Shown piece by piece: positions 252 to 59,329 of a stretch of 64,000 bases of DNA. The notes below the pieces were generated by a model. It saw only the letters and a program-made list of their open reading frames with translations. It did no database searches and had not been told where the DNA came from. The DNA lies in NCBI GenBank assembly GCA_028715175.1, contig JAQUSJ010000001.1, positions 148,356 through 212,355 of the forward strand, written 5' to 3'. Position 1 is the first letter of the stretch; every line of letters begins with the position of its first letter. A program made the position numbers and the translations under genes. Origin of the DNA: Candidatus Daviesbacteria bacterium. Its GTDB lineage: Bacteria; Patescibacteriota; Microgenomatia; Daviesbacterales; UBA10151.

Positions 252-1289
252 ATGGAAAGTTCTGCCCGAACTATAATTGAAGAATTAAGAATCAAGATTA
301 CTCAAGCTAATCTTCCAAACGAAATCGAAGAAAAGCTGATTAATCTCTTGAAATTCAGCGGTCTGTCAATCGGTGGAGGAATGGAACTTGCAAGTTTGGT
401 TTCTTATATTGATTTTGTAATTTCACTGCCTTTTGGGAAATTATCACAGGATATTTTAGATATAAGCAGGACCAGGCAAATTCTGGACAAAAATCACTTT
501 GGTTTACAGTCTGTTAAAGATCGGGTTTTAGAATATCTTTCGGTTTTGATTTTACATAAAACTTCCGGACAAACAAATGATTTCCATGCTCCGATTTTAG
601 CTCTTATTGGTTTGGTTGGTACAGGCAAAACTTCCCTTGCATATTCCATTGCCGAAGCTTTGGGAAGACCCTTGATGAGGATTCCTTTTGGCGGTTTGGG
701 AGACCCGGCCAGCTTGCGCGGTACATCCAGGATCCGTCCGGATGCTGAACCAGGTCAAATTATGAAAGCTATAAGATCAGCCAAGGTTTCAAATCCTGTT
801 ATAGTTTTGGATGAGATAGACCGGGTGGCGGAGGAGTACAAAGTAGATATTATGGGGGTTTTAGTAGAACTTCTTGATCCGGCGCAAAATCAGGCTTTTT
901 TGGATCATTATTTGGATTTTCCATATGATTTATCACAAGTTTTATTTATTGCGACTGCCAATAATACCGGAAATATTGCCACAGCAGTATTGGATAGACT
1001 TGAACCAATTACGATGCCTGCTTATTCAGATGAGGAAAAACTAACCATCGGACGGAATTACCTTTTACCGAAAGCGATTAAAGAAGCGGGATTGGATGAA
1101 AGGTTGCTTTCCATTGATGAGGCGGTGTGGCCGCAAATACTTCGTCCTCTTGGTTTTGATTCCGGGATTCGGTCGTTGTCCCGTTCTTTGCAGGCAATCT
1201 GCCGGAAAGTTGCCAGGAAAAAAGTAGAAGGGGAAACCGGACCGTTTAGAATCTCTCAGGAAAATTTAGGGGAGTTTTTATCAGGATGA
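252..1289 (+). CDS. Lon-type AAA+ ATPase module only (no N-terminal substrate domain, no S16 peptidase domain)
   Basis: Walker A GLVGTGKTS, Walker B VIVLDEIDR, sensor-1 FIATANN, Arg finger VLDRLEP and sensor-2 GIRSLSR are collinear with the Lon A-domain. The ORF ends where the Lon protease linker would begin. The stop overlaps the RNase J start (ATGA). Confidence 0.7.
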   Translation: MESSARTIIEELRIKITQANLPNEIEEKLINLLKFSGLSIGGGMELASLVSYIDFVISLPFGKLSQDILDISRTRQILDKNHFGLQSVKDRVLEYLSVLILHKTSGQTNDFHAPILALIGLVGTGKTSLAYSIAEALGRPLMRIPFGGLGDPASLRGTSRIRPDAEPGQIMKAIRSAKVSNPVIVLDEIDRVAEEYKVDIMGVLVELLDPAQNQAFLDHYLDFPYDLSQVLFIATANNTGNIATAVLDRLEPITMPAYSDEEKLTIGRNYLLPKAIKEAGLDERLLSIDEAVWPQILRPLGFDSGIRSLSRSLQAICRKVARKKVEGETGPFRISQENLGEFLSG

Positions 1290-2980
1290 AATCATTTAAA
1301 CCAAATTTTTTACCACAGGTAAACAGCAATCAAGCGCTAAGGATAATTCCTCTTGGTGGCGTTGGCGATGTCACCAAAAATATGTATGTTTATGAGTATG
1401 GTGAAGATATTATTATTGTTGATTGCGGAGTGGGTTTTCCGGATGAAGCTATGCCGGGAGTTGATTTGGTTATTCCGGATATTTCATACCTTAGGGATAA
1501 GGTTAATAAAATTAAAGGAATAATTATTACCCACGGGCACGAGGATCATATAGGCAGTTTACCTTATATTTGGCCAGAACTTCAGGCGCCTATTTATACT
1601 CAAAGACTGACAGCCGGTTTTATCAGGGCAAAATTCACCGAACATAATTTGCCAAAAAACAAGATTATCGAAGTTAAAATTGATCAAAAACTGGATTTGG
1701 GAAATTTTAAGATTTCTTTTTATCAAGTATCTCATTCCATACCCGATTCTACAGGGATAGTTATACAAACACCTCAGGGTAAAATTATTCATCAGGCAGA
1801 TTTTAAGATAGACTGGACTCCTGTATCTGGTCAGGTGACAGATGTAGGGAAAATTGCAGAGCTTGGCAGCGAGGGGGTATTAATGCTTCTTATAGATTGT
1901 TTAAGGGTTGAAAAGCCTGGTTTTAACAAATCGGAAAAATCTATTGAAGATACATTTGAAAAAGCTTGCCTTGAAACGTCGGGTAAAGTACTTATTACTA
2001 TGACTTCATCGAACGTTTCAAGAATGCAGCAAGCAATTAATGTAGCAGAAAAATTAGGCAGAAAGGTTGCAGTGGTGGGACGTTCATTTGAAAACAACTT
2101 CCAGGTAGCCAGAGACTTAGGGTATTTATTGGTCCCGCCGGGGATTATAATTGCTCCGGATAGCATTTCCTCCTTCGCCGAAAGTAAAGTTTTGATCCTA
2201 ATTGCCGGAGCGCAAGGACAGTCAGATTCTTCGCTTGCGAGGGCAGCGAACGAGGAGCACAGGCAAGTCAAACTTAAAGAAGGAGACAGCGTGATATTTT
2301 CTGCAGACCCGATTCCGTCAACAGAATCTGCCCAGAATGCATTAATTGATTCGCTGTCAAGATTAGGTTTAAACGTTTATTATTCTGCTGTACTTTCCGA
2401 TCTTCATGTTTCAGGTCATGCAGCACTTGAGGAACTTAAGTTGATGGTTAATTTAATCAAGCCAAAATTTATGTTTCCTATTGGAGGAACTTTTAGGCAC
2501 ATGGAAGCTTTTTCCAAAATGGCGGAGGAGATGGGATATGATAAAAAACAAGTCTTGAATGTTGAAGACGGAGATATTTTAGAGATTAGGGGTGAAGGTG
2601 TTAAACTTGCCGGTAAAGTTGATATACAAAATGTGTATGTGGACGGATTGGGGATTGGTGATATAGGACATGTGGTGTTGCGGGACAGACAGAAGATGAG
2701 CGAAGAAGGAGTGGTTGTGGTAGTGGTATCTGTCGATCAACATACCGGTAAGTCGGTATCTGATGTGGATATTCTCTCAAGAGGATTTGTTTTTGGGGAA
2801 ACAGCCGAAGGCATTCTGAATGAGGCAAAGGTAGTAGTTAAGAATGCTTTGCAAAAACATACTCATAAAACCGCCGATTGGCGTTTTATCAGAAGAATTA
2901 TTGAAGATTCATTAGATAAATTCTTATATCAGACAACAGAAAGGAGACCATTGATTCTATCAGTAGTGGTGGAAGTTTAA
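1286..2980 (+). CDS. rnj: Ribonuclease J (metallo-beta-lactamase/beta-CASP)
   Basis: IIPLGGVGDVTKNMYVYEY, HGHEDHIG metal motif and beta-CASP region; 564 aa. Confidence 0.9.
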   Translation: MKSFKPNFLPQVNSNQALRIIPLGGVGDVTKNMYVYEYGEDIIIVDCGVGFPDEAMPGVDLVIPDISYLRDKVNKIKGIIITHGHEDHIGSLPYIWPELQAPIYTQRLTAGFIRAKFTEHNLPKNKIIEVKIDQKLDLGNFKISFYQVSHSIPDSTGIVIQTPQGKIIHQADFKIDWTPVSGQVTDVGKIAELGSEGVLMLLIDCLRVEKPGFNKSEKSIEDTFEKACLETSGKVLITMTSSNVSRMQQAINVAEKLGRKVAVVGRSFENNFQVARDLGYLLVPPGIIIAPDSISSFAESKVLILIAGAQGQSDSSLARAANEEHRQVKLKEGDSVIFSADPIPSTESAQNALIDSLSRLGLNVYYSAVLSDLHVSGHAALEELKLMVNLIKPKFMFPIGGTFRHMEAFSKMAEEMGYDKKQVLNVEDGDILEIRGEGVKLAGKVDIQNVYVDGLGIGDIGHVVLRDRQKMSEEGVVVVVVSVDQHTGKSVSDVDILSRGFVFGETAEGILNEAKVVVKNALQKHTHKTADWRFIRRIIEDSLDKFLYQTTERRPLILSVVVEV

Positions 2981-3016
2981 CCCATAGTTTTATGGTATAA
3001 TTATTACATTCTTTAT

Positions 3017-5116
3017 ATGGCAAGAAGAAGATCAATCTATAAATTACCCAAGTTTAGGTTAAAACAGAAAACTATAACTGCTGTTGGTACCCTAATAGCT
3101 TTCAGCTTGAGCGTTTTATCAATTGTGGCACTTTTTACCCATTCTCAAACACTAGTATTTTGGAGAGATTTTCTAAATGAGTATTTAGGTGTAGCAAAAA
3201 TTGCCTCCCCAATCATTTTTTTGCTTTCCGGTTTGGTTCTGACAAAAGCCAAATGGAAAATAGCACAGACTAATGTTCTTTTGGGATTTATTTTACTGGT
3301 TTTATCCAGTGTTTCATTTGTTGCGGCGCTAAATTCTGAAAAAGCGGGTTCGATCGGGCAAACTTTGTGGATACAGCTGTCTTCTTTTGTCACTCCGCTT
3401 GGGGCAGCCACTTTGTTTGTGTTAGTTTTCCTGATTGGTTTGGTTGTACTTTTTAATACTTCCCTGCAGCAAATTTTTGCCGTTTTTGTTTATATTTTTA
3501 ATATCTTGCAAAGACTGTTTAAAGCAATTTTTAACAATCAGCGGACATTTGAAGCAAAACATATTCCGATTAAAGTTTCCGGGGTTGACGAACGCCCCGT
3601 CACAAAACCGCTGGCAATGCAGCAAAAAGAGGCCGTTATTGCTGATGTATTGGTACAAAATGTGGCCGGGCAAAGTAAAATCTGGAAATATCCACCTTTA
3701 AATTTATTATCTGATAAAGTGGGATCGGCCGCTGAAAGAGGTAATGTTAAAGATAATGCTAATATTATCGAAAAAACGCTAGATTCATTTGGGATTCAGG
3801 CAAATGTGGCAGAAGTCAACGGCGGGCCGGCAGTAACACAATATGCGCTGCGGATTTCAGCAGGAACCAAAATTTCGAAGATTGCCAATTTACAGCATGA
3901 TATTGCGCTGTCTCTGGCTACGCCTACCGGTACTGTCAGAATTGAGGCGCCTATTCCCGGAAAATCCCTGGTTGGTATTGAGGTACCAAACCGCTCTCTT
4001 GAGATAGTCGGCTTGAAACAAATTTTAGCATCAGAAGAGATGCAGAAGCATAAATCAAGACTGGCTGTTGCACTGGGACGGGATACTTCTTCAAAGCCAA
4101 TGATTGTAGATATAGATAAGATGCCTCACGTTCTGATTGCCGGTACAACCGGTTCAGGTAAATCGGTGTTAATTAATGCAGTTATTGCTTCCTTGCTTTT
4201 CAGGAATTCACCGGACACCTTGAAGATGATTTTGATTGATCCAAAAAGGGTAGAACTGACAAACTACAATGGTATTCCTCATCTTCTAACACCGGTTATT
4301 ACGGAACCGGAAAAGATTTTATCTTCCTTGAAGTGGGCAATGGCCGAAATGGATAGACGCTATAAATTATTCCAGTCAGTCGGAGTGCGTAATATCACGG
4401 GTTATAATGAAATGTCCGGTTTTCAGGCCCTGCCGTATATTGTCATTATTGTTGACGAGTTGGCCGATCTTATGATGTTTGCGCCGGTTGAGATTGAGGA
4501 TGCAATTACCAGGATTGCCCAACTAGCTAGGGCAACAGGAATTCATCTGGTGGTGGCAACCCAGCGGCCTTCTGTTGACGTTATTACAGGTTTAATCAAA
4601 GCCAATATCCCCTGCCGGATTGCATTTAACGTATCTTCCATGATTGACTCCCGGGTTATTTTAGACGGACCCGGGGCGGAGAAATTGCTGGGACGGGGAG
4701 ATATGTTGTTTTTGCCTCCGGATGCTTCAAAACCGATTCGTATTCAAGGAGTGTTTGTTCAGGATAATGAGATCGAGAGTTTGATTAAATATCTTAAGAA
4801 TACCGGCATTGCGCCGGAATATACTACAGAGGTAACGGAGATGCCGCTGGGCAGGTGGGGCGGAAGAAATGGTAATGGAGGCGAAAAAGACCAGTTATTT
4901 GAGGAGGCAGTTAAAACTATTTGCCAATATGATCGGGCTTCGGCATCGCTGCTTCAAAGAAGGCTTAAGGTCGGTTATGCCAGAGCTGCCAGGATTTTAG
5001 ATGAGCTGGAGGCAGCAGGGATTGTTGGCCCGGGTGAAGGTTCAAAGCCCAGGGATGTGCTGGTCCGTAATGCTGAGGAATATTTTGCAGCTCAACAAAG
5101 TGCGAGCGGAAATTAA
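3017..5116 (+). CDS. ftsK: DNA translocase FtsK/SpoIIIE
   Basis: N-terminal TM helices, Walker A AGTTGSGKS, motor domain, C-terminal gamma winged helix (LLQRRLKVGYARAARILDELE). Confidence 0.9.
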   Translation: MARRRSIYKLPKFRLKQKTITAVGTLIAFSLSVLSIVALFTHSQTLVFWRDFLNEYLGVAKIASPIIFLLSGLVLTKAKWKIAQTNVLLGFILLVLSSVSFVAALNSEKAGSIGQTLWIQLSSFVTPLGAATLFVLVFLIGLVVLFNTSLQQIFAVFVYIFNILQRLFKAIFNNQRTFEAKHIPIKVSGVDERPVTKPLAMQQKEAVIADVLVQNVAGQSKIWKYPPLNLLSDKVGSAAERGNVKDNANIIEKTLDSFGIQANVAEVNGGPAVTQYALRISAGTKISKIANLQHDIALSLATPTGTVRIEAPIPGKSLVGIEVPNRSLEIVGLKQILASEEMQKHKSRLAVALGRDTSSKPMIVDIDKMPHVLIAGTTGSGKSVLINAVIASLLFRNSPDTLKMILIDPKRVELTNYNGIPHLLTPVITEPEKILSSLKWAMAEMDRRYKLFQSVGVRNITGYNEMSGFQALPYIVIIVDELADLMMFAPVEIEDAITRIAQLARATGIHLVVATQRPSVDVITGLIKANIPCRIAFNVSSMIDSRVILDGPGAEKLLGRGDMLFLPPDASKPIRIQGVFVQDNEIESLIKYLKNTGIAPEYTTEVTEMPLGRWGGRNGNGGEKDQLFEEAVKTICQYDRASASLLQRRLKVGYARAARILDELEAAGIVGPGEGSKPRDVLVRNAEEYFAAQQSASGN

Positions 5117-15044: not shown

Positions 15045-15148
15045 GAGTTCAATTAAATAGAAAAAATGAAGGCGTACGGGTACGTATGCTTCTTTTTGTT
15101 GATTCTGCCCAATTACGATCAACAAGATCAAAAATAGGCCATCTACTA

Positions 15149-18100
15149 ATGTCATTAAACTTATCTAATACTAAAATTTACGAGCGTAAATATTTTAGCA
15201 AAGCACCTTCTATAGTACCTGAACTTAATTTAATCCAAATTCAGCTAGATTCATATCGTTGGTTTATGCAAACAGGAATCAGGGAGGTTCTTAAAGAGAT
15301 CTCCCCTGTTGAAGACTTCACAGGCAAAAATTGGACCCTGGAACTAGGGTCTTTTTATTTCGGTAAACCCAAATATGCTTCCGAAGAAGCTTCTCTAAAA
15401 GGTGTAACTTATGACGCGCCTCTTAAAATAGAGGCCATTTTAATTAATAAACAAACCGGCCAAAGATACAAACAAGAGGTTTTTTTGGGAGATGTCCCCC
15501 AAATGACAGAGAAGGGCACCTTTATCATTAATGGGGTAGAGAGAGTTATTATTAACCAATTGGTTCGTTCGCCGGGGGTATTTTTTCAAGCATCTGACGA
15601 CCCGATTACCGGAAAAAGATTATTCTCGGCAGAAATACGTCCATATCGGGGTTCATGGCTTGAATTTTCAATAACAAGGGGTGGAGTTTTGACTGCGAAA
15701 ATAGACAGAAGAAGGAAATTTGCCGCGACGACCCTGCTTCGTGCGTTGGGATTTTCCGATAATGAATCAATTATCGCACAATTTACCGATGTTGATACAG
15801 GGGAGGATAAATTCATTGATACAACACTTGCAAAAGATCCGACTACCAATACTGAAGAAGCTTTACTTGAGATTTTCCGAAAAATGCGCCCGGGTGATCC
15901 GGTTGTTTTGGATAATGCAAAAGCGCTTTTGGATGGGATGTTTTTTAATGCCAGACGTTACAACTTAATCAAAGTGGGCAGATACAAGATTAACAAAAGA
16001 TTAAATTTAAATTTACCAAATGTGCCGGAGAATTGGGTTTTAACCAAGGAAGATATAATTGCTACCTTAAAATATCTAATGAAATTAAATTATGGTGAGG
16101 GTAAATTGGATGATATTGATCACCTTGCCAACAGACGCGTCAGGTGTGCCGGAGAATTGGTCCAGCAAAATGCTTTTAGAATTGGAGTGCTCCGGCTTGA
16201 GCGGATTATAAAAGAAAGAATGAGTCTGACTGCTGCTGATCAGGAGGTTTCACCCGGTAGTTTAATTAATGCCAAACCGGTAATCGCCGCAATTAATGAA
16301 TTTTTCCGTTCTTCGCAACTTTCATCTATTCTGGATCAAGTGAATCCTTTATCAGAACTGGATCATTTGAGAAGACTTTCTGTTATGGGGTCAGGAGGCA
16401 TTACAAGAGATAGAGCTTCTTTTTCTGTCCGCGATATTAACCATTCCCAATACGGGAGGATTGATCCGATTAGATCTCCTGAAGGTCAAAATATTGGTTT
16501 GGTTACATATCTGGCGCTTTATGCTCGTATCAACGAATACGGATTTTTGGAAACTCCTTACAGAAAGGTAGTCATGCAGAAAGGTAAACCCAGGGTAACG
16601 AATGAGATTATCTACTTTACTGCAGACGATGAAGAAAATTATCATATTACCGAGGCGACGGTAAATTTAGATGAAAATGGTTATATCCTGGATGAACGGG
16701 TGCCAACCCGTTTCCAGGGGAGTTTTTATGAAGGGTTTGCCAAAGATATTTCATTCATTGATATTTCTCCGCAACAGATTTTCGGAACAAGCGCATCATT
16801 AATTCCATTTTTGGCAAATGATGATGCCAACAGAGCTTTGATGGGTACTCAAATGCAATGTCAGGCTGTTCCACTGCTTCGTCCATCAGCACCCATTGTT
16901 GGTACAGGCATGGAGAGGATCGTTGCTGACAATATGGGTAGAGTTATCAGAGCTCCCGAGGACGGCGTTATAAAATATGTAGACGGCAAAAAACTTATAT
17001 TAAAGACCAAAAAGCAAGAAATCAGCTTCGAAATCAAAAAATTTGTACACTCGCCTCAAGGCACTTGTTACTCTCAGCGGCCTGTTGTTAATGTCGGCAA
17101 TAAGGTTGCCAAAGGCGATCTTTTAATTGATGGAGCAGCGTGTGAGAATGGCGAACTTGCGCTGGGCCAGAATTTGTTAATCGCCTATATGAGTTTCGAA
17201 GGCTTAGGTTATGAAGACGCTATTGTCATTTCAGATCGATTGGTAAAAGAAGATACATTAACTTCAATTCATATTGAAGAATATGAAGTTGATGTTGTTG
17301 AGACCAAATTAGGACCGGAAGAGTTGACAAATGATATTCCAAATGTATCTGAAGAAGCGCTGGTAAACCTGGATGAAAAAGGAATTGTCAGGATCGGCGC
17401 AGAAGTAGGACCAAACGATATTATTATCGGTAAAGTTCAGCCTAAGGGCGAGACTGAACTTACTGCTGAAGAAAGATTACTGCGGGCTATTTTTGGGGAA
17501 AAAGCAAAAGAAGTCAGGGATACCAGTTTGCGGATTCCGCACGGAGAGCGAGGTACTGTTATTGGAGTACAAATTTTATCCCGGGATGAGGGCGACGAGT
17601 TGGATACAGGAACTCTGATGAGAATTAAAGTTAAAGTTGCCCAACTACGGAAAGTAACTGCCGGGGACAAATTGGCAGGCCGTCACGGAAATAAAGGAGT
17701 AATTTCAAAGATTGTTCCTGTTGCTGATATGCCCCATCTTGCAGATGGTACAGCCATAGATATTATTATTTCTCCCTTGTCGGTTTTGTCCCGTATGAAT
17801 CTTGGACAACTGTTGGAGACTCACTGGGGTTTTGCAGCGCAAAAATTAGGTCATAAAATAGCCGCACCTGTTTTTGAAAAAATTCCTGAAGAAAAATTAA
17901 TAGAAGCACTGCAAAAAGCCGGATACCCGACTGATGGTAAAGTACAGCTTTTTGATGGCAGGACAGGTGAACCTTTTGGTAACAAAATTGTGGTAGGTAG
18001 AAATTATATCCTTAAACTGATTCATATGGTTGAGGAAAAGATTCATGCTCGCTCTACAGGTCCGTACTCCTTAGTTACACAGCAGCCTTTGGGTGGAAAG

Positions 18101-18520
18101 GCTCAAATGGGGGGCCAGCGGTTGGGAGAGATGGAAGTTTGGGCTTTGGAAGCATATGGAGCGGCCAATATTCTGCAGGAAATGTTGACTATCAAATCTG
18201 ATGACGTTGTTGGAAGAGCTAAGGCTTTTGAAGCAATTGTTAAGGGAATTGATATACCGCAGGCTTTAATCCCTGAATCTTTCAAGGTATTGGTAAAAGA
18301 GCTCCAAGCTTTAGGTTTATCTGTTGAAACGCTTGGAGCAAAAATAGTCCAGGCGGAGGAGTTGGAAGAAAAACCGGAAGTAGTAGAGGAAGTAGCCGAG
18401 CTTCAGGAAGCGCTCGGAATGCAGCCAACTGCCACCCAGGGAGAACTTGAGGCAGAGGGAAGTCCTTTTGAAGTTGTAGATGCAGGTTCTGAAGTTGAAA
18501 AAGAAAAGGAGGAATCATAG
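15149..18520 (+). CDS. rpoB: DNA-directed RNA polymerase subunit beta
   Basis: Start moved to MSLNLSNTKIYERKYF (matches the RpoB N-terminus); full-length RpoB motifs throughout. Confidence 0.95.
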   Translation: MSLNLSNTKIYERKYFSKAPSIVPELNLIQIQLDSYRWFMQTGIREVLKEISPVEDFTGKNWTLELGSFYFGKPKYASEEASLKGVTYDAPLKIEAILINKQTGQRYKQEVFLGDVPQMTEKGTFIINGVERVIINQLVRSPGVFFQASDDPITGKRLFSAEIRPYRGSWLEFSITRGGVLTAKIDRRRKFAATTLLRALGFSDNESIIAQFTDVDTGEDKFIDTTLAKDPTTNTEEALLEIFRKMRPGDPVVLDNAKALLDGMFFNARRYNLIKVGRYKINKRLNLNLPNVPENWVLTKEDIIATLKYLMKLNYGEGKLDDIDHLANRRVRCAGELVQQNAFRIGVLRLERIIKERMSLTAADQEVSPGSLINAKPVIAAINEFFRSSQLSSILDQVNPLSELDHLRRLSVMGSGGITRDRASFSVRDINHSQYGRIDPIRSPEGQNIGLVTYLALYARINEYGFLETPYRKVVMQKGKPRVTNEIIYFTADDEENYHITEATVNLDENGYILDERVPTRFQGSFYEGFAKDISFIDISPQQIFGTSASLIPFLANDDANRALMGTQMQCQAVPLLRPSAPIVGTGMERIVADNMGRVIRAPEDGVIKYVDGKKLILKTKKQEISFEIKKFVHSPQGTCYSQRPVVNVGNKVAKGDLLIDGAACENGELALGQNLLIAYMSFEGLGYEDAIVISDRLVKEDTLTSIHIEEYEVDVVETKLGPEELTNDIPNVSEEALVNLDEKGIVRIGAEVGPNDIIIGKVQPKGETELTAEERLLRAIFGEKAKEVRDTSLRIPHGERGTVIGVQILSRDEGDELDTGTLMRIKVKVAQLRKVTAGDKLAGRHGNKGVISKIVPVADMPHLADGTAIDIIISPLSVLSRMNLGQLLETHWGFAAQKLGHKIAAPVFEKIPEEKLIEALQKAGYPTDGKVQLFDGRTGEPFGNKIVVGRNYILKLIHMVEEKIHARSTGPYSLVTQQPLGGKAQMGGQRLGEMEVWALEAYGAANILQEMLTIKSDDVVGRAKAFEAIVKGIDIPQALIPESFKVLVKELQALGLSVETLGAKIVQAEELEEKPEVVEEVAELQEALGMQPTATQGELEAEGSPFEVVDAGSEVEKEKEES

Positions 18521-18597: not shown

Positions 18598-21500
18598 ATG
18601 ACTATTATGAATGATTTACTAGATTTTGAAAGCTTAAGGTTAACAGTTGCTTCTCCTGAACAAATCCGCAGCTGGTCTTTTGGCGAGGTCACAAAACCTG
18701 AGACCATTAATTATAGAACCTTAAAAGCAGAGAAAGATGGTTTGTTTTCCGAGAATATATTTGGTCCGACCAAAGATTATGAATGTTACTGCGGTAAGTA
18801 CAAAAGAATTAGGTTTAGAGGCGTAATTTGTGATAAATGCGGAGTTGAGGTAACACAGAGCAAAGTAAGACGGGAAAGAATGGGTCATATCAATCTTGCC
18901 TCGCCTGTTGCCCATTCCTGGTTTGTTAAAGGAGCGCCCTCAAAATTGTCGCTAATTTTGGATATTTCGCCTAAAAATTTGGAAGCAGTTATATATTTCG
19001 CCTCTTATTTAGTAATAAATATTGATCCTGTTGGTAAAGCAGCAGCATTGGAGAAATTAGATAAGGATTTGCTGGCAAAGATTGCCGAAGCAGAAGAAAA
19101 ATTGGAAGCTAGCATTAAAGATGCTGAAAGCTCTTTGAAAAAAGCCGTTGCCGATCTAAAGAAAAAGTTAGAGAAAGAAAAATTTGAACTAGAAGCAGAG
19201 GAACTGGAGTTGAAAAGCCGCGCAGAGATTCAAAAATTAAGAGATAATTTGGTAGTAGAAACCGGACAGCTGGAAGGAATCTTCAAGGCAGTATCTGATT
19301 TGGTGAAAAGTGTTGCCTCCTTAAAACTACTATCGGAGGAAGAATATTTTAAACTTTCCGAATATGGGGTCTCGAATTTTGTTGAGGTCGGAATGGGAGC
19401 AGAAGCATTTTTGGAAGTTTTGGAAAAATTAGATTTAGATAAAACTTCTTCGCATCTGCGCGAAGAAGTTAGAAAATCTACCGGACAAAAACATATAAAG
19501 GCTACTAAAAGACTTCGCATAATTGAAGGCATGCGATCATCCGGTATTTCCCCTGCATGGTTGATTATGAGAGTACTGCCGGTTTTACCTCCGGATCTCC
19601 GTCCCATGGTACAACTTCCCGGCGGGAGATTCGCAACGTCCGATTTAAACGACTTGTATAGAAGAGTTATAAATAGAAATAATCGATTAAACAGGTTGAT
19701 TAATCTTGGCGCTCCGGAAATAATCTTGCGGAATGAAAAAAGAATGCTTCAGGAAGCTGTGGACAGTCTGATTGATGCGACATCCCGTACTTCAAGACGG
19801 GGAGGTCCTGCTACCACTCATGTGCTCCGTTCACTTTCAGACATGTTGCGGGGCAAACAGGGAAGATTTAGACAGAATTTACTCGGTAAAAGAGTTGATT
19901 ATTCAGGAAGATCGGTTATTGTTGTTGGGCCAAAACTTAAGCTAGATCAAGTCGGTTTACCAAAAGAGATGGCTTTAGAGATGTTTAAACCTTTTGTTTT
20001 GCGTGAGATGATAGCCCGCGGTTTAGCTTCTAATGTTAAGGGTGCAAAAAATGTTTTAGAACTTAGACCTAGTGAGGTTTGGGATATTTTGGAGGAAATT
20101 ATCACCGGACACCCTATTTTAATCAACAGAGCCCCCACTTTACACAGATTAGGTATACAAGCTTTTTACCCGGTATTGGTAGATGGTAATGCAATTGCTA
20201 TTCACCCTTGCATCTGCGCAGGATTTAATGCTGATTTTGATGGTGACCAAATGGCAGTTCATGTACCTTTGTCATCTAAAGCTCAAGAGGAAGCTCGGAG
20301 ATTAATGATGGCTAAGGAGAATATTTTCGGTCCGGCTAATGCTCAGCCAATCACGGTTCCGAATCGGGAAATGGCTTTAGGGTGTTACTATTTAACTTTT
20401 ATCGATGAGTCTGAAAGTTCGAAAGATTTACAATTTTTTGCACTTGCGGAAGATGCCGTCAGGGCTTTTACTTTGGGAAAGATCGGTGTCCAACAAAAGA
20501 TTCAGATAAGAGTAAACAACGAAATCATTGAGACATCGGTTGGGAGGATTTTATTTAACCAGGTATTGCCTCCTCAAATGAGATTCCTGAACTCTGTTAT
20601 CAAAGGATTTACGATCCGTGACATTATCCTCAAAGCTATGGAAATTTTAGGTAAAGATGAAACAACTAAGCTGATTGATAATATCAAAGATATTGGTTTT
20701 TGGGGAGTGACAATTGCAGGTATTTCAATATCAATATTTGATGCAAAGATTGTTCCTGACAAGAATAAATATTTAGAGAGGGCAATCAAAGAGATTGAAA
20801 CAATCGAAGCGAATACTGCTAAAGGTTTAATTACCCCGCAAGAAAAATCACAGCTTTCTCAAATGGTTTGGATCAAAACAACAGAAGAATTGGCCAATGC
20901 TACATGGGAACATTTGGGTTTTAAAAACCCTATCAGAATGATGGTTGAGGCAGGAGCCAGAGGATCCAGAGATCAGGCAAAACAATTGTCCGCCATGCGT
21001 GGTCTCTCAACCGATCCAACCGGTAAAATTGTTGAATTACCTACCAAATCAAACTACAGGCAAGGCTTATCGGTATTTGAATACTTTACATCAGCTCGGG
21101 GAGCAAGAAAAGGTGTGGCAGATAAAGCACTAAAAACTGCAGATGCAGGATACTTAACCAGGAGACTAGTGGATGTTGCTCACGATGTCATTATCAGGAT
21201 GGAAGATTGCGGAACATCCAGTGCGCTTGAATATGATCTAACCAAAAATAGCTTCAATATAGCAAGAGAGAAATTGCTTGGTAGATTAATCTCGGAAAAT
21301 GTTTTGGAACCGAAAACCAGAAAAGTAATTATCAAAAAAGGTACAATATTGACTGAAGATATAATTTCAAAAATACTGAAAGCAGGAGTTGTAAAAGTAT
21401 CGGCCCGGTCTCCCTTAACTTGCGAGGCCCGTGTCGGAATTTGTAGCGCTTGTTATGGATTTGATTTAACTACCAGAGAGTTGGTTAAAATTGGTACTCC

Positions 21501-22302
21501 TGTTGGTGTGGTGGCAGCTCAGGCAATCGGTGAGCCCGGAACACAGCTAACAATGCGTACTTTTCACACCGGAGGAATTGTCGGTTTGGATATTACTCAA
21601 GGTTTGCCAAGAGTTGAAGAGTTGTTTGAAGCTAGAACTCCAAAAGTTGTGGCGCCAATTTCCGAGATTGCCGGAAAAGTTTTCGTTGTTGAAGCAGAGG
21701 ATGCAGGTATAAGAGTTAGAGTGAGAACTACCCAAAAACCACACGAAGAAAGAGAATACATAATTCCTGCAACAGCCACACTTTTAGTGGAAGAGGGACA
21801 ACTGATTGATGCCGGTACAACTCTTGCCTCGGGTCATGCAGATGTAAAAGAAACTTTGCGGATTCAAGGGTTGCGGGTTGCGCAGCGCTATATTGCTGAT
21901 CAGGTCCGATCGGTTTATGAATCTCAAGGGGTGCCTATTAATGAAAAGCATTTCGAAGTTATTGTGCGGAAAATGTCAGATAAAGTTAGAGTTGAAACCC
22001 AGGGTGATACCAATCTTTTGCCCGGTGAAATTATTGATAAACTTCGTTTTGAAGAAGAGAATAAGCGTGTTTTGGCCGGCGGCGGCGAACCGGCAACGGC
22101 AGAAGTTGTGATTTTAGGAATTACCAGAGCATCTTTACAAACGGAAAGCTTCTTGTCTGCTGCTTCTTTCCAGGAAACTACTTCAATACTTTCAGATGCA
22201 GCCATCTCTGGTAAAGAAGACAAGTTGGTAGGTCTAAAGGAAAATGTTATAATTGGCAGGCTCATTCCTACAAGTATAGAGAGAGCAAGGATAGAAAGTT
22301 AA
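18598..22302 (+). CDS. rpoC: DNA-directed RNA polymerase subunit beta'
   Basis: Zn-binding [23 protein letters not shown] and the NADFDGD catalytic motif. Confidence 0.95.
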
Positions 22303-22304
22303 AA

Positions 22305-22775
22305 ATGCCAACTATTAATCAATTAGTTAGAAAAGGTAGAAAAAAGATCGTTAAAAAGATTAAAGCTACGGCTTTAAGACGTAGTTTTAATGCCAAAGAC
22401 AGGAGATATACCCAAGATTTCAGCCCGCAAAAACGGGGAGTTGTTACTTTGGTTAAAACTATGACTCCAAAAAAACCAAACTCAGCACTCAGAAAAGTGG
22501 CCAGAGTAAGACTTTCCAACAGAACTGAGGTGACGGCATATATTCAAGGTGAAGGTCACTCGTTAGCAGAACACGGAATTGTGCTAGTCCGGGGCGGCAG
22601 GGTGAAGGATTTGCCGGGAGTGAAATACCATTTAGTCAGAGGTAAGTTCGATCTGGTAGGAGTAGTAGGTAGAAAACAAGGTAGATCAAGATACGGTACA
22701 AAAAGCGGAGGAGGCGGACCGGTGCCCAGAGCGGCTGCGCCTCCGCCAGCTGGCGGACCAACTCCAGCAGTATGA
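22305..22775 (+). CDS. rpsL: 30S ribosomal protein S12 with an unusual GC-rich 24-aa C-terminal extension
   Basis: [11 protein letters not shown]...KYHLVRG S12 core; tail [23 protein letters not shown]. Confidence 0.9.
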
Positions 22776-22792: not shown

Positions 22793-23269
22793 GTGAGAAG
22801 CGGAAAAGCTGAAAAGAAAATACTCCCACCGGATCCTATTTACGGGTCAAGGCTTGTGGCCCGATTTATTAATAAATTGATGATCAGCGGTAAAAGAACC
22901 GTTGCAGAAAAATTAGTTTATGAAGCTTTGGAGACAATAAGAGAACAAGTTAAGCAGGAACCGCTTTCTGTTTTTGAGAAAGCTATTTCTAATATTGCTC
23001 CAAAGATGGAGGTTCGACCCCGGCGAGTCGGTGGAGCTTCATACCAGGTGCCGGTTGAAGTCAGAGGCGACAGGAAAGAAGCTTTGGCAATCAGGTGGAT
23101 TTTAACCGGAGCAAGATCCAGGTCTAATAAAGAGTTTCATTCTTTCGATAAAAAATTAGCGGCAGAACTTATTGACGCTGCAAATAATACCGGTGCGGCA
23201 ATTAAAAAGAAAGATGATGTCCAAAAAGCCGCTGCAGCCAATCGTGCATTCAGTCACTTCCGTTGGTAA
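22793..23269 (+). CDS. rpsG: 30S ribosomal protein S7
   Basis: S7 family sequence; 158 aa. Confidence 0.9.
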   Translation: MRSGKAEKKILPPDPIYGSRLVARFINKLMISGKRTVAEKLVYEALETIREQVKQEPLSVFEKAISNIAPKMEVRPRRVGGASYQVPVEVRGDRKEALAIRWILTGARSRSNKEFHSFDKKLAAELIDAANNTGAAIKKKDDVQKAAAANRAFSHFRW

Positions 23270-23293
23270 ATACTCATTGAAAGGTAAAGATAT

Positions 23294-23518
23294 ATGAATA
23301 AAAAAATAAGAGAACAAAAAATTAAAATGTGGAAAGATAATTTAGCTAAGTTGGAAGAAGAGTTAAGGGTGATTGCGGAGAAAAAAGGAGTTGCTGCTCA
23401 AGAAGGCGATCTGTCGGAAAACGCTGCTTATACTATAGCTGTTGAGGATGCGGAAACAACTAGAGTTAGAATTGAAGAAGTGAAAAAGTTAATTAGAGAT
23501 TTGGAAAAAGAAGGTTAA
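23294..23518 (+). CDS. GreA N-terminal coiled-coil domain-only protein (mini-Gre factor)
   Basis: [50 protein letters not shown] aligns with the GreA NTD including the acidic tip D-x-x-E. No C-terminal FKBP-like domain, since fusA starts 2 nt later. Confidence 0.6.
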
Positions 23519-23519
23519 T

Positions 23520-25658
23520 ATGACATTAACAAAGACAAAACGGGATTTTCCGCTGGACAGGATTAGAAACATTGGAATTATTGCCCATATTGATGCAGGA
23601 AAAACTACTACAACCGAGCGAATCCTCTTTTATACAGGAAAAACTTACAAAATAGGCAATATTGACGAGGGTACAACTGTTACAGACTGGATGGAGCAGG
23701 AAAGAGAGCGGGGAATCACTATTGTTTCTGCAGCCATCACAGCTTTTTGGACTGTTAAAAAAGGTCAATTTGAAGGTGAAGAAATGAGAATTAATTTGAT
23801 TGATACACCGGGTCACGTTGATTTTACAGCCGAAGTTGAGCGGAGTTTGCGGGTTTTAGACGGGGCAGTAATTGTTTTGGATTCCTCATCCGGCGTGCAA
23901 TCACAGACAGAGACTGTTTGGAGACAGGCTAATAAATATAATGTGCCTTTAATTGCCTTTTCCAACAAGATGGATGTGGTGGGAGCGGATTTTCAGGCCA
24001 CTATTCAATCTGCCAGGGATAGGCTAGGTGCAAATGCTATTGCTTACAATCTGCCAATAGGCAAAGAGAACGATTTTAAAGGAGTGGTAGATCTTTTGAG
24101 CGAGAAAGCAATTATTTGGGAAGGGGATGAAACCGGCGCAAAGTTTCATGAAATAGATATACCCGCTGATATGGCTGAAGTTGTCAAGGCGGCTCGCGAG
24201 AAGTTGGTTGAGGAAATTGCAGGTACCGACGATATTTTGATGGGGAAGTATCTGGAAGGGAAAGAAATTACAGTGCAAGAGTTAAAACAAGCCTTAAGGA
24301 AAGCAGTAATTGCCAATAAAATCGTACCCGTTATGGCGGGGTCATCTCTTCGCAATAAAGGGGTTCAGTCAATGCTTGATGCTGTTGTAGAATATCTTCC
24401 CTCTCCGCAAGACATAGCTACAGTTTCAGGTTACAATCCAAAAACAGGTGATCCTGAAGAAAGAAAAGCAGACTCGACTGCTCTCCTGGCGGCGTTGGCT
24501 TTTAAAATTCAAGTTGATCCGCATGTAGGAAAATTGACTTATATCAGAGTATATTCCGGAACCTTGAAAAGCGGTTCTTATGTGTACAACGCCACCAAAC
24601 AAATTAGAGAAAGAGTAGGTAGGTTGCTTCTCATGCATGCCAATGACAGGGAGGAAATCGATGAAGCTTTCGCCGGAGAAATTGTGGCAGCGGTAGGTTT
24701 GAAAGATACTGTCACTGGTAATACCCTTTGCGATGAGAATACTCCAATTATTTTAGAGTCTATCTCTTTTCCTGATCCGGTTATTTCTTTGGCAATAGAA
24801 CCAAAAACAAAATCAGATCAGGAAAAGCTAGGTTATGCTTTGCAAAGACTTTCCGAAGAAGATCCGACTTTCCGGGTCAAGTCTGATCCCGAAACCGGCC
24901 AGACTATTATTGCAGGTATGGGTGAATTGCAGCTTGAAATTTTGGTTGACCGGATGAAAAGGGAGTTTAAGCTGGAGGCTAATGTGGGTCAGCCGCAAGT
25001 TGCATACAAGGAAACTATTACTCAGATAGCAAAGGGTGAGGGGAAGTATATCAGACAAACCGGAGGTCGTGGTCAATATGGCCATTGTTTGCTTAGAATT
25101 GAGCCTCTGCCGCGGGGAACCGGCAGGGAATTTGTCTCAGAAATTGTCGGTGGCGCTATCCCGCGGGAGTTTATTCCCCCAATTGAAAAAGGAGTTATTG
25201 AAAAAGAAGATACCGGTATTTTGGCTGGATTCCCTGTGACTGATATTAAAGTAGCTGTTTATGACGGGTCTTTTCATGATGTTGACTCCTCGGAAGTTGC
25301 TTTTAAGATTGCAGCTTCACTGGGGCTTTCTGAGGCAGCCAAAAAAGCTGACATGATTCTCCTTGAGCCGATTATGAAGGTGGAAGTTACTACTCCTGAG
25401 GAGTTTTTGGGGGAGATTATTGGTGATTTGTCTTCTAAAAGAGCGCAAATTCTTTCTTCCGAAACCCGGGGAAATGCCAGGGTGGTGATAGCTTTGGTTC
25501 CTTTGGCAGAAATGCACGGTTATGCTACAGCTATCCGCTCCATGTCTCAGGGTAGAGCTACTTATTACATGGAGGCAGATCATTATGAAACAGTACCGCA
25601 AAACATCACCCAAAAAATCATTGAATCCTCAGGCTTTACAGGTAGAGTGGAACACTAG
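23520..25658 (+). CDS. fusA: Elongation factor G
   Basis: [17 protein letters not shown]1 motif, DTPGHVDF; 712 aa. Confidence 0.95.
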
Positions 25659-25659
25659 A

Positions 25660-26667
25660 ATGAGAAGGCTCAATATTGCTATTTTGCCTGCAGGAGTTTG
25701 GGGGACTGCTTTGGTAGTTCCTGTTTCAGATAATGGGCACAGAGTAACGCTCTATTTTAGACAAAATGCAGACGCAAAAAAGTTTAATGAAGTAAAACGG
25801 AATTTAAAAAGACTACCGGAGATCCGGTTTAATGGACAGGTTAGTGCGACTTCTAATTTAAAGAAGGCAATTTCAGGGGCAAATATATTGGTTTTAGCTT
25901 GTGACGTTTACCATGTCAGAAATTTCTTTAAGCAAATCAAACCTTTTGTTAAAGAAAATATGATTATTCTTTGTAGCGCCAAAGGAATTGAGAAAAAGAC
26001 GAATCTTTGTATGTCGGAAGTGCTCAGTGAAGTTTATTCTAACAATAATGCTAATTTAGCAGTTATGTCCGGCCCAAATTTCGCAGTTGAGGTAGCCAAA
26101 AGATTACCAACAATGACTGTAATTGCTTCAAAAAAGAAAACTGTCGGTAATCTTTTGCAAAAAGCTTTCAGTACGGAAAACTTTAAGGTTTATACCCAAG
26201 ATGATGTTTTGGGGGTGGAACTGGGAGGGGCGTTAAAAAATGTTATAGCAATCGGAGTGGGTATTGGGGAAGGACTACGGATGGGTGAGAACTGTAGGGC
26301 GGCTCTCATCACTAGAGGGATTGCAGAGATGATTAAACTAGGAACAGTATTAGGTGCTAATAAGTTGACTTTTGCCGGTTTATCCGGTATGGGGGATTTA
26401 ATATTGACTTGTACTTCTGCCCAAAGCAGAAATTATAAAGCAGGATTTAAAATAGGTAGGGGAATGAATCCGAAAGATCTGCTTACATCGGGTGAAACTA
26501 TTGAAGGATTGCGAACAGTTAAGGTTGCTGTTGGAATAGCGAAGAAAAAAAATATTGAAATTCCCATAATGGAGATGGTTTATAAAATAGTTTATCAGGG
26601 TTTAAAACCCAAGATAGGATTCAGGGAACTTATGAAGTTTGAACTAAGTAGCGAGAACGGAGATTAA
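25660..26667 (+). CDS. gpsA: Glycerol-3-phosphate dehydrogenase [NAD(P)+]
   Basis: Start moved to the ATG at 25660, just after the fusA stop. NAD-binding N-terminus and GpsA C-terminal domain (GLSGMGDLILTCTS). Confidence 0.85.
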   Translation: MRRLNIAILPAGVWGTALVVPVSDNGHRVTLYFRQNADAKKFNEVKRNLKRLPEIRFNGQVSATSNLKKAISGANILVLACDVYHVRNFFKQIKPFVKENMIILCSAKGIEKKTNLCMSEVLSEVYSNNNANLAVMSGPNFAVEVAKRLPTMTVIASKKKTVGNLLQKAFSTENFKVYTQDDVLGVELGGALKNVIAIGVGIGEGLRMGENCRAALITRGIAEMIKLGTVLGANKLTFAGLSGMGDLILTCTSAQSRNYKAGFKIGRGMNPKDLLTSGETIEGLRTVKVAVGIAKKKNIEIPIMEMVYKIVYQGLKPKIGFRELMKFELSSENGD

Positions 26668-28398: not shown

Positions 28399-28992
28399 AT
28401 GTCTAAATTTAAGGTTTTAGGATTTATTAATTGCCTTTTAGCAATTTTGCCTATTGTCGTTCGGTATCCTCTTAATTTAGTTTTCTTATTTTCATTAGGA
28501 CTAAATATTTATTTAGGATATAAATTACTTTGGGAACACTATGATCTAACAAAATTTAAACAATATTCAACTCTGACTTTCTTAACTGTTTTTTGGCTCA
28601 TTTGGGGTTTGATCGGATATATTTTTGCGTCAGGGTTTGTTTACCCAATAATCTCTCTTGTGCCAATTACTGGAATTTTTATCTTTATTAGGAAACTTTC
28701 GGTTAAACTGGCTTTACTTGTTTCCTTTGCTACATTTTTAATTGTTGTCCAAACGATAGCTTGGAGATTTGAAGAAGATTATTGCTGGAAGAAAGGGTAT
28801 GAAATGGCTGTAGGTAAACTAGGAACGATGGTTGTTCCTGGCCAAGAAGCTAAAAATTTATTCGGCAGTGATATTGATATTTCTGCATCTGGTTCTGCTG
28901 AAGTTGGTACAGCCGCATATTACCATTTTAAGTGTCATCAGGATTTTGATTTGGGTAGAGTACTGAGAGAAAAATATATCCCAAAGAAGTAA
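28399..28992 (+). CDS. Hypothetical polytopic membrane protein inserted between rpsJ and rplC
   Basis: Starts 2 nt after the rpsJ stop (coupled); 4-5 predicted TM helices; no family recognised. Confidence 0.5.
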   Translation: MSKFKVLGFINCLLAILPIVVRYPLNLVFLFSLGLNIYLGYKLLWEHYDLTKFKQYSTLTFLTVFWLIWGLIGYIFASGFVYPIISLVPITGIFIFIRKLSVKLALLVSFATFLIVVQTIAWRFEEDYCWKKGYEMAVGKLGTMVVPGQEAKNLFGSDIDISASGSAEVGTAAYYHFKCHQDFDLGRVLREKYIPKK

Positions 28993-44062: not shown

Positions 44063-44455
44063 ATGGGTACTAATAAATTATCAGCAAAAGATATAAAAAG
44101 AGAGACACATACTATTGATGCATCCGGAAAAATTTTGGGCAGACTTGCGACAGAAGTGGCAACTATTCTGATGGGCAAAAATAAAAATAAATTTGTACCG
44201 TACTTAGATTTAGGAGACTTTATTGTAGTGACTAATGCAAGCAAAGTTAAGGTTACAGGGAAAAAGATGAAGGATAAGAAATATGTACGACATTCAGGAT
44301 ATCCGGGCGGACTAAAAGTTGAAACTTTTGATAAGTTGATAAACCGTAAGCCGGAATATATTATTGAACACGCAGTAAAAGGTATGCTTCCGCATAATAG
44401 GTTAGGCAGGCAAATGATCAAAAAAATGAAAGTTTTTGCAGGAGAAGTGAAATAA
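44063..44455 (+). CDS. rplM: 50S ribosomal protein L13
   Basis: [17 protein letters not shown]13 signature. Confidence 0.9.
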
Positions 44456-44457
44456 TT

Positions 44458-44847
44458 ATGGAAAATACCTCTACAATTGGACGACGCAAAGAAGCAAATG
44501 CCAGAGTAAGATTAAGTTCTGGAAATGGTCAAATTGTAGTTAACGGGAAACCTATTGCACAGTATTTTGCAGGTCCGATTTTACAAAAAATTTACATGAA
44601 ACCATTGGAAATTACTCAAACTTCCAAAAAATTTACAATTTCGGTAAAAGTTGTTGGCGGAGGACAGGTTTCACAGCTTAAAGCAGTTATTCACGGTATC
44701 GCCAGAGCCATTGCTAAGCAAACACCGGCTTTACGGACAATTCTTAAAAAGGAAGGCTTTCTCACCAGGGATGCAAGAGTAAAAGAACGAAGAAAATATG
44801 GTTTGGCTCAAAAAGCGCGGGCAAAGAAACAGTCACCAAAACGGTAA
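44458..44847 (+). CDS. rpsI: 30S ribosomal protein S9
   Basis: GRRKEANARVRL...KYGLAQKARAKKQSPKR S9 signature. Confidence 0.9.
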   Translation: MENTSTIGRRKEANARVRLSSGNGQIVVNGKPIAQYFAGPILQKIYMKPLEITQTSKKFTISVKVVGGGQVSQLKAVIHGIARAIAKQTPALRTILKKEGFLTRDARVKERRKYGLAQKARAKKQSPKR

Positions 44848-59029: not shown

Positions 59030-59286
59030 ACGCCTAGGAAGAAGGATGATCGGTCGCCTTAGGCGACAGGAAAGTCCAGACAGCATAAAGCAGGGTGGTC
59101 CGATGTAAATCGGACACGGGTAACCGCTAGTTAGAGCAACAGTGACGAACCGAGGTCATGCTCGGGTGAAACGTGGCAATCCTCCCCGCTGCAATCCTAG
59201 AACCGACAGAGTTGCTTGCTCAATTGTTGAAATCAGGAGCATTAGATAAATGATCGTCTAAAAACAGAATCTGGCTTACTAGCTTC
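59030..59286 (+). ncRNA. rnpB: RNase P RNA (compact bacterial type)
   Basis: P1 gccuaggaag / cuuccuaggc (59032-59041 / 59273-59282). P4 strands GGAAAGUCCAGAC and ACAGAAUCUGGCUUA match the universal P4 consensus. AGCAGGGUGG and extended -10 tgTATAAT lie just upstream. Confidence 0.7.
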
Positions 59287-59329
59287 CTAGGCATTTTTCT
59301 TCTATTTTTCTCATTGTATACTTATATAA

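Follow-up and report, generated by a model that had tools for sequence, protein, structure and literature searches.

Between rpsG and fusA, the window (the whole 64-kb stretch of DNA analysed here, from Candidatus Daviesbacteria, which are tiny-genome bacteria) encodes a 74-aa protein that corresponds to the N-terminal coiled-coil finger of GreA and has no C-terminal globular domain. We refer to this protein as mini-Gre and regard it as almost certainly a genuine standalone Gre finger; with its single domain it falls short of a two-domain Gre factor, although its descent from one is plain. A sequence 100% identical to it is present at NCBI as a hypothetical protein of a Candidatus Daviesbacteria MAG (743,708-bp contig), and database labels for mini-Gre proteins read either 'hypothetical' or an automatic 'GreA/GreB family'. 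Our literature search returned no paper treating both GreA and Patescibacteria and none describing mini-Gre; Gre factors do not appear in the titles and abstract openings of the Daviesbacteria literature, and nothing on a Gre factor stands in the excerpted text of a survey that covers bacteria of the candidate phyla radiation (CPR) (PMC9297842).

The gene order in the window is rpoB, rpoC, rpsL, rpsG, mini-Gre, fusA, a gpsA-like gene and tuf (Table 1), with 24 nt between the rpsG stop and the mini-Gre start codon. An orthologue of the window rpsG bears PF00177, and EF-G orthologues 91% identical to the window fusA product bear the full EF-G Pfam set. A terminator-like hairpin was sought on the + strand from rpsG to fusA and none was found, in keeping with the str-operon setting that the earlier note had proposed. 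Many relatives carry a stronger GAGGGAGG than the Shine-Dalgarno-like element of the window, at similar spacing 5' of the mini-Gre start. The junction with fusA is likely a site of translational coupling, and RpoB and RpoC, encoded in the same gene string, are the presumed target enzyme of mini-Gre.

Table 1. Coordinates in the window of the mini-Gre gene, its landmarks and its neighbours.
Feature	Position	Strand	Basis
mini-Gre CDS, 74 aa, ATG start, TAA at 23516-23518	23294..23518	+	ORF listing
Codons for hairpin tip G38-D39-L40-S41-E42-N43-A44-A45-Y46	23405..23431	+	Alignment to GreA
Shine-Dalgarno-like GAAAGG, 9 nt 5' of mini-Gre ATG	23279..23284	+	Read from sequence
TAA-T-ATG junction: mini-Gre stop, 1-nt spacer, fusA start	23516..23522	+	Sequence
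fusA (EF-G, 712 aa), conserved 3' partner of mini-Gre	23520..25658	+	ORF
rpsG (S7), 5' neighbour in window, adjacency not conserved	22793..23269	+	ORF
rpoB	15086-18520	+	ORF; Pfam annotation of orthologues
rpoC	18598-22302	+	ORF; Pfam annotation of orthologues

The earlier note had described the ORF as a GreA N-terminal domain standing alone, and profile comparisons bear this out. The Pfam family PF03449 (GreA_GreB_N), the search proposed there, matches mini-Gre over profile positions 6-68 of 71 (E = 1.1e-7; 32.4 bits, the curated cut-off being 24.5). NCBIfam GreA models align only over their first 66-74 positions, their N-terminal halves, with TIGR01462 reaching 34.1 bits against a cut-off of 139 and the other GreA/GreB models also remaining far under theirs. 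When a profile of 43 mini family members (alignment A1) was compared by hhalign with 23 full-length CPR GreAs (alignment A2), the two were matched with a probability of 99.2% (E = 2.4e-19), mini residues 8-71 pairing with GreA columns 16-80. The AlphaFold2 model (pLDDT 90.4) is a single helical hairpin formed from helices 3-36 and 44-72 with the tip loop between them, and its top Foldseek match is GreA 1grj, at 1.2 Å over 60 residues.

The FKBP-like docking domain is missing, as the earlier note had stated. The ORF stops at residue 74, where the GreA interdomain linker would begin, and Pfam gives no match to the Gre C-terminal domain (PF01272) in mini-Gre. Searching the window by tblastn with 12 full-length GreAs recovered their N-terminal halves only, all at the mini-Gre ORF, and revealed no sequence resembling the Gre C-terminal domain across the 64 kb, the interiors of rpoB and rpoC included. 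The DksA/TraR zinc finger (PF01258) has no Pfam match in mini-Gre at E <= 10, and the 74 residues include no cysteine. A marginal profile match to the ANTAR domain of a response regulator (PDB 6wsh, E = 0.013) was also obtained; we rejected this resemblance because Pfam shows no ANTAR match at E <= 10.

At the tip of the hairpin, D39 and E42 correspond to D41 and E44 of E. coli GreA (offset +2), and they align with the tip Asp and Glu of both GreA 1grj and the GreA/Gfh1 chimera 4wqt. All nine residues of GDLSENAAY are invariant in the 120 best of 324 homologues and in the 43 sequences of A1, so that the intact acidic tip and its GreA-like spacing, as read in the earlier note, hold across the family's core. 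The full-length CPR GreAs of A2 share the same G-D-L-x-E-N-x-A invariants, with the tyrosine at 90% or more. That the tip is invariant while overall identity falls to 72%, and that it matches the GreA catalytic consensus exactly, argues that the RNAP active site is still the target and most likely still the place of function.

The homologues form 324 clusters at 90% identity. The best 120 of these are all 70-103 aa long, contain PF03449 only, and range in identity to the window protein down to 72%; invariant among them, besides the tip, are K9, K11, W13, K31, G32, A34, A35, E51, D52, T55, R57, I60 and K64. Searched exhaustively with HMMER, a set of 1.84 billion representative proteins yielded only 41 matches at E <= 1e-3, about 30 of them short proteins, and the family is therefore compact and lineage-restricted. 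Codon alignments from 55 loci gave a median pS of 0.78 and a median pN of 0.20, and dN/dS has a median of 0.14 among the 284 unsaturated pairs, synonymous sites being saturated in most pairs. Close relatives, in which the earlier note would have taken absence or disruption of the ORF as evidence against it, thus retain the gene intact and under purifying selection.

A context scan, motif-seeded and limited to one genome per GTDB species, with loci found through the mini gene itself, placed a 72-84-aa mini gene directly 5' of fusA in at least 53 genomes that each represent one species of Candidatus Daviesbacteria or its relatives (L005-L057). In these and one further locus (L002), the mini stop lies -8 to +5 nt from the fusA start in 41 of 54 cases, typically as TAATG or TAAnATG. 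The distance from rpsG to the mini gene, by contrast, ranges from 23 to 4378 nt across relatives, the longer gaps being filled with unrelated genes that vary by locus. The conserved unit is thus mini-fusA. For the rpsG-mini-fusA arrangement suggested in the earlier note, this means that adjacency to fusA is conserved and adjacency to rpsG is not, with up to 4.4 kb of unrelated genes intervening in many relatives. A fusion of mini-Gre to EF-G by frameshift was ruled out, as the gap and the frame relation vary (-8 to +141 nt).

The scanned records are titled Daviesbacteria, Microgenomates, Patescibacteria and, for some, 'Gammaproteobacteria', the last evidently wrongly, and the EF-G proteins of the mini-fusA loci so titled are 85-93% identical to that of the window. 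Many MAGs named 'uncultured Gammaproteobacteria bacterium' (L007, L011, L012, L016 and others) bear this Daviesbacteria-type mini-fusA, and their titles look mislabelled.

In a control scan, metagenome loci were seeded from the EF-G N-terminus instead of the mini gene. A mini gene was again found 5' of fusA, in L092 and L093, and it is present in the two loci closest to the window (EF-G 92% and 87% identical). At the 80% locus it is absent and fusA does not adjoin rpsG, at the two loci of 70-71% a divergent mini gene is present, and at 68% or below it is absent from all loci, with rpsG usually abutting fusA.

The interval between rpsG and the mini gene is an insertion hotspot in L006-L057, throughout which the mini-fusA junction stays intact. 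Its inserts, identified by eye from their sequences, include a ~175-aa histidine-phosphatase-like protein (14 loci), a YerC/Trp-repressor-like 149-aa protein (5 loci), and GNAT-like, YrdC/Sua5-like and other proteins. We considered these proteins as docking partners for mini-Gre and rejected them, as their families differ by locus and none is found in the window.

The family extends beyond its core form. Some minis with the K-L-x-M-W ... GDLSENAAY signature are not associated with fusA (L058-L062), and one of these loci holds a tandem second copy with the degenerate tip GYLSENAY (L061, 5256-5480). Two tandem minis precede fusA in L088 (5001-5228 and 5209-5457), a GDLRENAAY copy followed by a 'type B' copy with the tip GDWSENAEFEDA and a PF03449 score of 42 bits; a type B mini is also found 3' of a pyrophosphatase gene (L090). 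Other genes 5' of fusA have tips of AAPGESAAW (L095, 2103-2357) and GAAWQENAAW (L096, 3486-3764). In the P0136 lineage, with contigs of up to 942 kb, a 72-aa gene 5' of fusA carries the tip NLGDDSALQ and has no Pfam match (L089, 5001-5219), and in P0132 and P0135 the tip is deleted. Within the main Daviesbacteria clade, which includes the window, the acidic tip thus does not vary, whereas some side lineages can evidently keep the gene without an intact one. The earlier note had named loss of the tip residues as evidence against its reading: close relatives keep them, but in distant lineages (EF-G ~70% identical; P0136) the tip is degenerate or deleted. Lost or altered tips in genes that still stand 5' of fusA suggest a non-catalytic role for mini genes in some lineages, a point that weighs against cleavage as the whole of the family's function.

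The closest full-length relatives belong to a 149-aa GreA family whose helix 1 is mini-like (KKRGGAAADGDLKENSAY). This family comprises 163 clusters; its few NCBI names are Candidatus Shapirobacteria or 'Patescibacteria group bacterium', no cluster is named Daviesbacteria, and its Shapirobacteria greA genes lie outside the str region. Canonical GreAs of 151-180 aa occur in Dojkabacteria, Saccharibacteria, Nealsonbacteria and Parcubacteria. Most simply, mini-Gre is a Microgenomates Gre that has been reduced by its C-terminal domain and fixed in front of fusA.

Gre coiled coils reach the active site via the secondary channel, with two functionally important acidic residues at the tip (PMC4598747); the coiled coil carries the antipause and cleavage function and the globular C-terminal domain the binding to RNAP (PMC4598747, PMC7527559), and antipause activity is ascribed to the N-terminal domain of E. 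coli GreA (PMC7527559). In the reading that we favour, mini-Gre is a real, expressed, single-domain protein of the Gre lineage, a 74-aa antiparallel helical hairpin corresponding to GreA residues 1-75. [quoted passage not shown] All of this would proceed in the absence of the globular C-terminal part by which Gre factors normally dock on the channel rim. We infer that mini-Gre binds RNAP, stimulates cleavage and compensates for the lost docking: the missing binding energy could be made up by high dosage, arising from co-transcription with rpoB and rpoC and from translation coupled to that of abundant EF-G, and a second compensation could lie in a stabilised, lysine-rich hairpin base with family-specific residues. 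The invariant W13 falls on apparent heptad a/d positions with I10, L17, L20 and L24 (a pattern in the sequence only), and K9 and K11 are likewise invariant.

The isolated N-terminal domain of E. coli GreA is said, in 1998 work by Koulich et al., to retain weak cleavage-inducing activity. Both domains of that protein are reportedly required for specific binding to RNAP (PMC7527559, citing Koulich 1997), so a lone finger may bind too weakly. With slightly better than even confidence, we favour mini-Gre as a minimal secondary-channel finger that stimulates cleavage without a docking domain and serves as the main or sole Gre factor of its hosts. The further propositions that it is the only secondary-channel factor of Daviesbacteria, or that it docks through a lineage-specific partner, seem to us somewhat less likely than not.

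The likeliest rival reading makes mini-Gre a competitor or regulator in the channel, a role that the earlier note had also raised, acting beside a full-length GreA or another factor and tuning cleavage rather than providing it, in the manner of Gfh1 or Rv3788. Both of these proteins inhibit despite their acidic tips (PMC4598747). Tandem pairs in which one tip is intact and the other degenerate (L061, L088), and tip-degenerate members 5' of fusA, resemble diversification of the GreA/Gfh1 type, and full-length GreA is present in other CPR lineages. On the other hand, the window holds neither a full-length GreA nor a Gre C-terminal domain in its 64 kb, the 163 clusters of the 149-aa full-length family include none named Daviesbacteria, and all known inhibitors retain the docking domain. 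A scan with exact motifs argues weakly in the same direction, none of the 58 mini-bearing assemblies being among its full-length GreA matches (80 loci kept). We consider a regulatory role of this kind unlikely.

The persistent link to fusA raises the question of whether the hairpin has instead been recruited to EF-G or the ribosome, as a coupler of transcription to translation or as an accessory of EF-G. Such a role would explain why fusA is the conserved neighbour and why the two genes meet at a coupling junction; the link survives inserts of up to 4.4 kb on the rpsG side, and tip-degenerate variants remain 5' of fusA. A target other than RNAP is hard to reconcile, however, with a main-clade tip that is invariant and equal to the GreA catalytic consensus; some family members lie away from fusA (L058-L062, L090), and adjacency in an operon is by itself a weak indication of physical interaction. 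We find this reading quite improbable. The bL28 protein is reported to be missing from all draft Daviesbacteria genomes (PMC9297842); given its pI of ~5.6, mini-Gre probably does not stand in for a ribosomal protein. That the ORF is spurious, or a greA remnant left non-functional by truncation, might be supposed from its shortness and from an NCBI label of hypothetical protein only. The conservation data effectively refute this, leaving it a negligible chance: there are 324 homologues, start and length are conserved, dN/dS is ~0.14, and the gene has its own predicted ribosome-binding site and is conserved across at least 53 species.

Compared with known systems, mini-Gre is closest to GreA and GreB (PF03449 + PF01272), with which it shares a homologous N-terminal antiparallel coiled coil of equal length and the G-D-L-x-E-N-A-x-Y tip motif with its two catalytic acidic residues. 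Unlike them, it lacks the entire C-terminal globular RNAP-binding domain, and its helix 1 has a family-specific K-x-K-M-W motif. Its gene, moreover, is located in the rpoBC-str string and coupled to fusA, unlike those of the nearest full-length relatives in Shapirobacteria, whose greA lies elsewhere. TraR, a minimal DksA-like protein that at ~70 aa is a cut-down form of a two-part secondary-channel factor, resembles mini-Gre by analogy only: it belongs to a different family and represents the opposite truncation, keeping a zinc-containing globular docking part and losing some of the coiled coil.

Every characterised secondary-channel factor of bacteria (GreA, GreB, Gfh1, DksA, Rnk and TraR) is described as combining a coiled coil with a globular RNAP-binding domain (PMC4598747). 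The laboratory construct GreA-NTD (E. coli residues 1-75; pHM1885, with a stop after codon 75) has essentially the same boundaries as mini-Gre (PMC7527559), but it is artificial and reportedly binds RNAP poorly without the C-terminal domain, whereas mini-Gre is a natural gene under selection. Gfh1 and Rv3788, acidic-tipped Gre homologues that sit in the channel but do not stimulate cleavage (PMC4598747), offer a possible model for the tip-variant paralogues; unlike mini-Gre, they still have the C-terminal domain, on which both their binding and their pH switch depend. The N-terminal arm of HelD indicates that a Gre-like coiled coil can work in the secondary channel from a different, non-Gre docking module (PMC7749165). 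In HelD the coiled coil is part of a large helicase-like ATPase, unlike the free-standing hairpin of mini-Gre.

Mini-Gre thus presents the catalytic finger alone as a naturally selected family, with more than 300 sequence clusters and at least 53 species, and gives the reduced transcription machinery of CPR bacteria a further distinctive feature. It raises the testable question of what share of Gre function needs docking, and as an 8.5-kDa protein it could serve as a minimal probe of the RNAP active site. If mini-Gre is the sole Gre factor of its hosts, the accepted domain requirement for the Gre family would change; if it is the sole channel factor, it would demonstrate, in a natural setting, that a Gre finger needs no docking domain to rescue RNAP in vivo. 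A strict coupling to EF-G, if true, would, in a minimal genome, hold the capacity for transcript proofreading in stoichiometric proportion to that for translation elongation. Should mini-Gre instead coexist with a full GreA, it would represent a new type of channel regulator.

Several further features of the window and its relatives were recorded along the gene string. In the metagenome contig L001 (JGI; 1253-4945), rpoC is split into two genes of 873 and 312 aa where otherwise identical loci have a single gene of 1230 aa; this is probably a sequencing frameshift. The S12 protein of the window (22305-22775, + strand) is 156 aa long, with the Pfam S12 domain at residues 38-129 only and a Gly/Pro/Ala-rich tail. 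In relatives S12 measures 141-154 aa, and enlarged uS12 in CPR bacteria is noted in the survey cited above (PMC9297842). A glycerol-3-phosphate dehydrogenase (gpsA-like) gene (25693-26667, + strand) stands between fusA and tuf in the window, while tuf lies directly 3' of fusA in the relatives L001-L004; the mechanically called start of the gpsA-like ORF, at 25522, lies within fusA and has probably been placed too far 5'.

Between rpsJ and rplC, the window contains a 197-aa ORF with no Pfam match (28399-28992, + strand), and at the equivalent place L001-L003 carry a weakly Sigma70_r4-like gene of 139-143 aa together with a DUF3276 gene. In Dojkabacteria and Saccharibacteria loci (L063, L066 and L068, at about 300-1150), a full-length greA is found ~4 kb 3' of rplM-rpsI; at 44063-44847 in the window, a phosphoglucomutase-family gene and further genes, none of them greA, come after rplM-rpsI. 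The window also includes a match to the bacterial class A RNase P RNA (59034-59294, + strand), in which model positions 1-367 are spanned by only 261 nt, and this RNA is therefore strongly reduced.
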